A DNA stretch of 64,000 bases, taken from Escherichia coli (GTDB lineage Bacteria; Pseudomonadota; Gammaproteobacteria; Enterobacterales; Enterobacteriaceae). Under the pieces are notes generated by a model. The model made no database searches, was not told where the DNA came from, and saw only the letters and a program-made list of their open reading frames with translations. The stretch lies in NCBI RefSeq assembly GCF_030013595.1, contig NZ_CP122768.1. One strand, given 5' to 3'. Position numbers and translations under genes: made by a program. Shown here in pieces: positions 20,928 through 21,241 of this stretch; position 1 is the first letter of the stretch; each line of letters starts with the position of its first letter.

Positions 20928-20969
20928 GCTCCGTTTAACATTCATTGAGAAAACTGATGCTACTGTGTC

Positions 20970-21070
20970 AACGATCCGTTATCAGTGCAGGAAAATGCCT
21001 GTTAGCGTAAAAGCAAAACACAAATCTATCCATGCAAGCATTCACCGCCGGTTTACTGGCGGTTTTTTTT
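20970..21070 (+). ncRNA. mgrR: Candidate small RNA MgrR (PhoP-regulated) between dgcZ and mgtS
   Basis: Plus-strand terminator (accgcc/ggcggt stem plus T8) at 21044-21070, about 117 nt past the dgcZ stop; K-12 has mgrR between dgcZ and mgtS (recollection). 5' end and strand not verified. Confidence 0.35.
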
Positions 21071-21077
21071 CGCCGTC

Positions 21078-21118
21078 ATAAAAATCAGGCCCCTTGTACA
21101 CAGTTGTAACAAGGGGCC
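21078..21118 (-). terminator. Terminator hairpin downstream of mgtS
   Basis: 10-bp stem ggccccttgt/acaaggggcc followed on the minus strand by a U-rich tract. Confidence 0.5.
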
Positions 21119-21145
21119 GGTTAGGTGAGGGATTATCTCCGTTCA

Positions 21146-21241
21146 TTAGTCATCCCATTTGTGGCTGAAATACGCGGCCAGAAAACCAGAAAATAAAATT
21201 ATTCCCAGTACGGCCATAAAAACATTCATATTACCCAGCAT
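21146..21241 (-). CDS. mgtS: Small membrane protein MgtS (YneM), 31 aa
   Basis: Minus-strand ORF translates to MLGNMNVFMAVLGIILFSGFLAAYFSHKWDD; GGAGG Shine-Dalgarno 7 nt upstream. Absent from the ORF track because it is under 60 aa. Confidence 0.85.
   Translation of the reverse strand: MLGNMNVFMAVLGIILFSGFLAAYFSHKWDD

Follow-up and report, generated by a model that had tools for sequence, protein, structure and literature searches.

The convergent mgrR and mgtS–mgtT units of an Escherichia coli genome, and a small open reading frame that crosses a conserved terminator

For what reason is a very small open reading frame (ORF), mgtT, translated across a conserved transcription terminator and into a convergent small RNA (sRNA) gene? 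The question is raised by positions 20,928 to 21,241 of a 64,000-nucleotide stretch of Escherichia coli DNA (RefSeq assembly GCF_030013595.1, contig NZ_CP122768.1), the whole of which is called the window below. The locus is, almost beyond doubt, the low-Mg2+ mgrR/mgtS–mgtT region of E. coli, in which two convergent transcription units stand under the control of PhoQ-PhoP. Its sequence elements and annotation are already published, and nothing in the identification is new. A preliminary description made from the letters alone had proposed mgtS and a probable MgrR sRNA at this place; alignment to K-12 agrees with the strand and position given for mgrR, and the 31-codon ORF is MgtS. Overlooked in that description were two further minus-strand ORFs, mgtT (21042-21146) and one of 17 codons (21241-21294).

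Identity of the locus

From 19900 to 22700 the window aligns with the reverse complement of E. coli K-12 MG1655 without gaps and with 50 mismatches in 2801 nucleotides (nt). Carried over from K-12, the annotation reads as follows.

20037-20927, plus strand: dgcZ
20973-21070, plus strand: mgrR (b4698), 98 nt
21042-21146, minus strand: mgtT (b4775), 34 residues
21146-21241, minus strand: mgtS (yneM, b4599), 31 residues
21368-22555, minus strand: ydeE

Within 20900-21400 only five positions differ from K-12 (20909, 20976, 21103, 21104 and 21347); 20909 lies inside dgcZ, and 21347 is intergenic, upstream of the mgtS promoter. RefSeq records of strains 100% identical to the window have mgtS and mgtT annotated at the same positions. 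The start of dgcZ is placed at GTG 20031 (298 residues) in the ORF list and at ATG 20037 (296 residues) in K-12 and RefSeq.

Orthologous loci for comparison were collected by an exact-pattern scan of species-representative genomes with 20 nt of the MgrR core. This gave 20 loci, from E. albertii, E. whittamii, a divergent E. coli (L010), fourteen Citrobacter, Salmonella enterica subsp. arizonae, and two metagenome-assembled genomes (MAGs), one labelled Raoultella and the other Caldithrix (L006). In all loci that are long enough, except that of C. amalonaticus, mgtS is present and convergent with mgrR, and in Escherichia and most Citrobacter mgrR is preceded by dgcZ.

The minus-strand ORF at 21146-21241 had been equated with MgtS; it translates exactly as then given (MLGNMNVFMAVLGIILFSGFLAAYFSHKWDD), and its DNA, placed between ydeE and dgcZ, has zero mismatches to K-12 mgtS. 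Coding DNA, Shine-Dalgarno sequence, 5' region and position are all 100% identical to those of K-12 mgtS/yneM (b4599), with no difference detected. The product matches NCBIfam NF033842 over residues 1-31 of 31 (80.6 bits, cut-off 35) and Pfam PF22865 (88.2 bits, cut-off 27). Over 19 orthologs the variable columns fall 8/4/22 by codon position, a clean coding signature, and the orthologous proteins of Citrobacter and Salmonella show 80-100% identity. MgtS is a 31-residue single-pass inner-membrane protein, which is reported to stabilise MgtA (10.1101/2021.06.30.450655); on the strength of the literature, the MgtS of the window would raise MgtA levels and intracellular Mg2+.

The MgrR RNA

A plus-strand terminator at 21044-21070 had been suggested to end an MgrR transcript of roughly 100 nt, and K-12 mgrR is indeed on the same strand, is 98 nt long and stops there. 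The mgrR of the window is like K-12 b4698/RF01407 in strand, flank (downstream of dgcZ) and length, and is identical to it in the pairing region, the A-rich tract and the U8 terminator. The two RNAs share 97 of 98 nt. The only change, at nt 4 (20976; C here, U in K-12), stands immediately ahead of the 5' stem. In biochemical work MgrR is a 98-nt RNA with a central A-rich (ARN)5-like tract and a U8 tail, in which U55-A68 pairs with eptB, ygdQ and other mRNAs (PMC6239178); G41, U55 and A68 of the window's MgrR agree with the numbering of that study. The parts of the RNA are placed as follows.

20977-21007 (nt 5-35), plus strand: 5' stem-loop of the predicted fold
about 21009-21023, plus strand: A-rich (ARN)-like tract, as placed in this analysis
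21027-21040, plus strand: target-pairing region U55-A68, in the numbering of PMC6239178
21044-21063, plus strand: terminator stem of 8 bp with a 4-nt loop, followed by U8 (T8) to 21070, from a terminator scan and folding

The predicted fold (-25.9 kcal/mol, z = -2.9) consists of the 5' stem-loop, a long unpaired centre and the terminator. The sequence of U55-A68, which is that of K-12, is unpaired in this fold; together with the A-rich motif it is unchanged in all 20 orthologs outside the 20-nt search bait. The minimum free energy structure is paired in 94% of cells over 15 distinct orthologous sequences, against 25-49% in slid controls. Explicit counting of pairs on this structure gave two compensatory pairs, a number reached by 24 of 500 shuffles; the pair counts are therefore consistent with the structure but give no independent proof of it. 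MgrR is known to repress eptB (10.1101/2021.06.30.450655). With Hfq binding and targets taken from the literature, the window's MgrR would be an Hfq-dependent Class II sRNA that represses eptB and ygdQ.

The same region is matched by the Rfam model RF01407 (STnc560) at 20939-21152 on the plus strand, over model positions 1-214, with 280.2 bits (E = 4.9e-64; gathering score 55 bits). STnc560 is equated with MgrR because its coordinates overlap the K-12 mgrR annotation. The Prokaryotic Genome Annotation Pipeline (PGAP) annotation of strains identical to the window (e.g. NZ_CP029164.1) has no mgrR ncRNA feature.

PhoP-type promoters of the two units

A PhoP box has been described as (T/G)GTTTA-N5-(T/G)GTTTA, ending 12 nt from the -10 element in architecture I promoters and 21-23 nt from it in architecture III (PMC3335776). 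Candidate boxes of this kind, a search for which was proposed in the preliminary description, stand at both promoters in degenerate form; the pattern matches by themselves are not enriched in the window. The elements are listed here together with the Shine-Dalgarno sequence of mgtS and the ORF, named CDS58, that precedes it.

20921-20926, plus strand: PhoP-type hexamer 1 of the mgrR promoter, AGTTTA
20932-20937, plus strand: PhoP-type hexamer 2 of the mgrR promoter, CGTTTA
20943-20948, plus strand: PhoP-type hexamer 3 of the mgrR promoter, CATTGA, the core of an 8-mer, CATTGAGA
20961-20966, plus strand: predicted mgrR -10, TACTGT, 6 nt before the annotated K-12 5' end, G20973
21342 to 21326, minus strand: predicted mgtS PhoP box AATTCA-GCCTT-CGTTTA, exactly 12 nt before the -10 (architecture I)
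21313 to 21308, minus strand: predicted mgtS -10, TAATAT, with the start predicted near 21301/21300
21294 to 21241, minus strand: CDS58, a 17-codon ORF (MKIKVSEETHHTINGGK) whose stop codon TAA overlaps the mgtS ATG (TAATG)
21248-21252, minus strand: mgtS Shine-Dalgarno sequence GGAGG, within the last codons of CDS58

At mgrR the three hexamers are spaced at 11 bp (AGTTTA-N5-CGTTTA-N5-CATTGA), and in the pattern scan AGTTTAAGCTCCGTTTA was matched there with 2 mismatches. Hexamers 2 and 3 end 12 nt from the -10, which fits the spacing of architecture I, and hexamers 1 and 2 end 23 nt from it, which fits that of architecture III. Among the 20 orthologous loci hexamer 2 reads CGTTTA in 17 and TGTTTA in 3, and hexamer 3 reads CATTG[GA] in 17. 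The pattern TAnnnT is kept in all orthologs at 20961-20966, where TACTGT would be the -10 of mgrR. The stop codon of dgcZ (TAA, 20925-27) lies within hexamer 1, so that the mgrR promoter overlaps the end of the upstream gene.

On the mgtS side, AATTCA-N5-CGTTTA at 21342-21326 is likely to be the PhoP box, with 4 mismatches to the consensus in E. coli. In the orthologs its proximal hexamer is TGTTTA in 14 of 17, the distal one fits [AG][AG]TTCA in 17 of 17, and the -10 reads TACTAT in 11 and TAATAT in 4; the Citrobacter promoter has AGTTCA-GCCTT-TGTTTA with TACTAT as its -10. Transcription would start at about 21301/21300. The GGAGG that had been reported before mgtS is present from 21252 to 21248, 6 nt ahead of the ATG.

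Hexamers and -10 elements of both units are conserved in Escherichia, Citrobacter, Salmonella and the Raoultella-labelled MAG. Both promoters share with the Salmonella architecture I promoters of mgtA, phoP and slyB (PMC3335776) the N5-spaced hexamer pair, the distance of 12 nt and the lack of a recognisable -35. They differ from these in the degeneracy of the hexamers (CATTGA at mgrR, AATTCA at mgtS), and mgrR has, in addition, a further phased hexamer one helical turn upstream, through which it also fits architecture III spacing. We infer which of the hexamers PhoP would contact; the PhoP dependence itself comes from the literature, in which mgrR and mgtS are convergent and PhoQP-dependent (10.1101/2021.06.30.450655) and mgrR-lacZ and yneM-lacZ are in use as PhoP-activated reporters (PMC3536696). 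The sequence shows all the needed elements to be intact in this strain.

The third hexamer of mgrR is also the core of the 8-mer CATTGAGA, which the preliminary description had noticed ahead of both units. Both copies exist, at 20943-20950 on the plus strand and from 21301 to 21294 on the minus strand; only that of mgrR has meaning as a promoter element. The window contains the 8-mer 5 times, where 2.35 occurrences are expected, and at least 5 appear in 13 of 100 shuffles. Since this count is within chance, the copies were judged by position and conservation. The mgrR-side copy is predicted on these grounds to be a conserved, degenerate, promoter-proximal third PhoP half-site, 12 nt from the -10, and the mgtS-side copy sits at the predicted +1 and is not its counterpart.

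mgtT and the terminator that it crosses

The minus-strand terminator proposed at 21078-21118 has the hairpin and tail that had been described, at exactly those coordinates; what had escaped attention is that the hairpin lies inside annotated mgtT. Its parts are as follows.

21118 to 21088, minus strand: stem of the mgtS-transcript terminator
21087 to 21078, minus strand: its tail, UGAUUUUUAU; stem and tail lie within mgtT codons 10-23

The translation of mgtT, MNGDNPSPNRPLVTTVYKGPDFYDGEKKPPVNRR, has 34 residues, 33 of them the same as in K-12, and matches Pfam PF23498 with 93.3 bits against a cut-off of 27. Position, length and the overlap with the mgtS stop codon are as in K-12 mgtT (b4775): the ATG shares a TAATG at 21146 with that stop codon (ACTAATGAA, 21150 to 21142). 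The difference from K-12 is V15T; both of the base changes behind it (21103-04) lie in the hairpin loop. PGAP gives the product as 'hypothetical protein' for the window's V15T allele and as 'protein MgtT' for K-12-like alleles, and the V15T substitution is probably the reason for the former label.

The hairpin folds with -21.9 kcal/mol (z = -3.5). Over 18 orthologs its 13 pairs are paired in 97.9% of cells, with compensatory changes in 3 of them, and its covariation score of 0.149, against 0.101 for shuffled alignments, was reached in 0 of 500 shuffles. The U-tract is conserved too, in Citrobacter in the form AUUUUUUU. A simple terminator scan left this hairpin unreported because its stem is bulged; folding and covariation supported it. 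In E. coli the two terminators stand back to back, 7 nt apart, and in Citrobacter there are about 30 nt more between them. In the stretch of the hairpin, the constrained feature is clearly the RNA structure.

Codons 10-20 of mgtT form the hairpin and codons 21-23 the U-tract, after which 11 codons more lead to the TGA at 21044-42; the last 29 nt of the ORF are antisense to the MgrR terminator. Transcripts that stop at the U-tract do not reach the 3' part of the ORF or its stop codon, so full-length MgtT would need read-through. The gene was found by Ribo-RET and tagging, with the tagged protein detected (10.1101/511675), and is PhoQP-dependent, in an operon with mgtS, and not membrane-associated (PMC11429745). 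An RNase III-dependent site has been mapped at K-12 1622816, which is window position 21071, in a region with antisense transcripts (PMC5371410). A look through the literature brought up no published map of mgtS 3' ends.

Comparison with the orthologs gives a mixed picture: the ATG and roughly the first 13 codons of the ORF are conserved, and its length varies. It has 34 residues in the window, in the K-12-like contig L006, in the divergent E. coli L010 and in E. albertii, 30 in E. whittamii, and 14 in nine Citrobacter- or Raoultella-labelled loci, where the stop codon lies in the hairpin loop; elsewhere it has 9-66. In codons 2-9 the variable columns fall 3/6/7 by codon position, without the third-position bias of mgtS. 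Maintenance of the ORF across genera with constraint at the protein level was thus not found for MgtT, and the membership of the E. coli gene in its family is unaffected by this. The variable ORF and the lack of third-position bias weaken the claim that MgtT is a conserved functional protein.

Upstream of mgtS, the 17-codon ORF has the same translation as CDS58 of the PIRT-Seq study (supplementary file 5, PMC12350097), for which a weak western signal was obtained with a sequential peptide affinity (SPA) tag (PMC12350097). Its ATG follows the predicted start of the mgtS transcript after only about 6-7 nt. In the ortholog alignment Citrobacter and Salmonella have no ATG at this start position, and CDS58 is not conserved beyond Escherichia. 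The pairs yriA/yriB and ybgU/ybgV of E. coli likewise have stop-start or nested overlaps of very small ORFs on one transcript. Here, unlike in those pairs, three ORFs are chained by identical TAATG junctions, and the third runs across an intrinsic terminator into a convergent sRNA gene.

Alternative readings

No result contradicts the identification of the locus as two PhoP-controlled units, one of them encoding MgrR, though it has weak points. A generic sigma-70 scan of 20700-21500 reported no promoter at either unit, a miss that is uninformative because activator-dependent promoters have no -35. The window-wide scan for PhoP boxes with at most 3 mismatches gave 183 matches against 155 expected, which is no enrichment, and it missed the mgtS box because that box has 4; the pattern alone is therefore no evidence, and the distance to the -10 and conservation across genera were used instead. 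RNAalifold saw almost no covariation among the MgrR orthologs, which are too similar to one another to provide much, and no paper found links the names STnc560 and MgrR. That the plus-strand RNA is a species of about 214 nt spanning 20939-21152, as the extent of the STnc560 model might suggest, is scarcely credible. The match does take in model positions 1-214 with both hairpins. Positions 1-34 of the model, however, are promoter (the third PhoP hexamer and the -10), a strong terminator with its U8 stops the transcript at 21070, and both the K-12 annotation and the biochemical work have a 98-nt RNA. The insertion of about 30 nt in Citrobacter falls right after the U8 tail, so the region downstream of MgrR is not one conserved unit. 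The boundaries of the model appear generous, its 3' part taking in the opposing mgtS terminator. It is also very improbable that CATTGAGA is a shared regulatory motif, such as a common operator, governing both units. The same 8-mer does stand ahead of both, and the literature has them co-regulated; against this, its promoter positions differ (about -30 to -23 at mgrR, the predicted +1 at mgtS), the mgrR copy is kept across genera (CATTG in 19 of 20) and the mgtS copy is found only in 4 Escherichia of 17 sequences, the count in the window is no more than chance, and the mgtS copy runs into the ATG of CDS58. A common-operator role for the mgtS-side copy was rejected for its lack of conservation and its different promoter position.

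A far more serious alternative concerns mgtT itself, which may not be selected for its protein at all. The mgtS stop codon and the terminator would then have the ORF as a mere side effect, or as a regulatory device built around them: ribosomes would begin anew at the overlapping AUG and move into the terminator stem, with the peptide sequence of no importance. We consider the chances of this to be only a little short of even. It would account for an ORF that ranges over 9-66 residues among genera and whose codons ahead of the stem show no third-position bias; the compensatory changes that keep the hairpin alter residues of MgtT, the last 11 or so codons and the stop codon lie past the U-tract, and neither deletion nor overexpression of mgtT gave a phenotype (PMC11429745). 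A selected protein is favoured by the start of the ORF, where the ATG and the TAATG/TGATG junction are invariant in 20 of 21 sequences and MNGD.P...RPL is fairly well kept. Translation has been seen by both Ribo-RET and PIRT-Seq, the tagged protein is detectable and Pfam has a curated family, PF23498; the sample is small, moreover, and the codon counts are low.

A possible mechanism

In the following scheme for the mgrR/mgtS–mgtT locus, identity, coordinates, structures and promoter conservation come from this analysis and the functional steps from the literature. Low Mg2+ would activate PhoQ-PhoP, and phosphorylated PhoP would bind boxes that stand in for the -35 at both promoters. The plus-strand promoter (hexamers 20921-20948, -10 at 20961-66) would drive the 98-nt MgrR, which would bind Hfq by way of the A-rich tract and the U tail, and whose nt 55-68 (21027-40) would pair with eptB, ygdQ and other mRNAs and repress them. 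The minus-strand promoter (box 21342-26, -10 at 21313-08) would drive a short mgtS mRNA. From this mRNA MgtS would be translated with the help of its strong Shine-Dalgarno sequence and enter the inner membrane, leading to more of the Mg2+ importer MgtA. The same mRNA would carry CDS58 upstream and mgtT downstream as accessory ORFs, each linked with mgtS through a stop and a start codon that overlap by one nucleotide. Most of it probably ends at the conserved hairpin and U-tract, 21118-21078, and transcripts that read through would contain the whole of mgtT and be antisense to the 3' end of MgrR.

One could go further and regard the CDS58–mgtS–mgtT chain of TAATG junctions as a translation-coupled switch, in which re-initiation on mgtT brings ribosomes into the terminator stem and thereby determines the amount of transcriptional read-through. 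We think this improbable. The combination of a conserved AUG and first 13 or so codons with a C-terminus that varies freely would be in keeping with a function of translation itself and not of the peptide.

Distribution and genomic surroundings

Of 5426 complete E. coli genomes, 5409 contain a 431-nt core of the locus at 80% coverage or more; 4867 records have it at 99% identity or more. A 701-nt query that reaches into dgcZ and ydeE attains 80% coverage or more in only 5023 E. coli genomes, so that about 7% of them have another flank, probably on the ydeE side (window 21345-21500). The ydeE side is named because the alignments of E. albertii and E. whittamii stop just beyond the mgtS PhoP box, and because PIRT-Seq found the operon separated from ydeE in a minority of isolates (PMC12350097).

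The exception in C. amalonaticus S646 (L020) has MgrR with its promoter and terminator, followed by unrelated sequence; tblastn of this 4-kb locus found no mgtS and no dgcZ. Linkage of mgrR to the small-protein gene is therefore not universal. The contig L006 (SMXE01000224.1, 'MAG: Caldithrix sp.') carries mgrR-mgtT-mgtS-ydeE, its YdeE is 98.7% identical to that of the window, and where K-12 and the window differ it agrees with K-12. Almost certainly, E. coli sequence has here been binned into a Caldithrix MAG as a contaminant.

Elsewhere in the window, the annotation of an identical strain shows a lambdoid prophage that fills positions 1 to about 10.7 kb, with tail genes, gpJ, lom, a tail fibre gene and a recombinase. 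The Rfam model RF02111 ('IS009') matches at 9802-10000 on the plus strand (226 bits, gathering score 117), inside the tail-fibre assembly gene tfaQ of this prophage. Beside the prophage end, 11055-13357 contains two further small genes, ydfK and the 37-codon ynfT (11357-11470, minus strand), and a 5'-truncated ydfJ pseudogene, whose truncation is consistent with insertion of the prophage into ydfJ.

Implications

That a 31-residue gene and a 98-nt sRNA could be recovered from the letters alone serves as a check of quality, as ORF tracks and some automatic annotations omit both. The locus is part of the response to low Mg2+ and to antimicrobial peptides, in which MgtS leads to more Mg2+ import and MgrR, through eptB, to less modification of lipopolysaccharide. 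If the improbable switch were real, the read-through RNA, which would cover the MgrR 3' end in antisense, and the RNase III-dependent site that corresponds to 21071 would let the small-protein and sRNA branches of the PhoP response adjust each other's levels.

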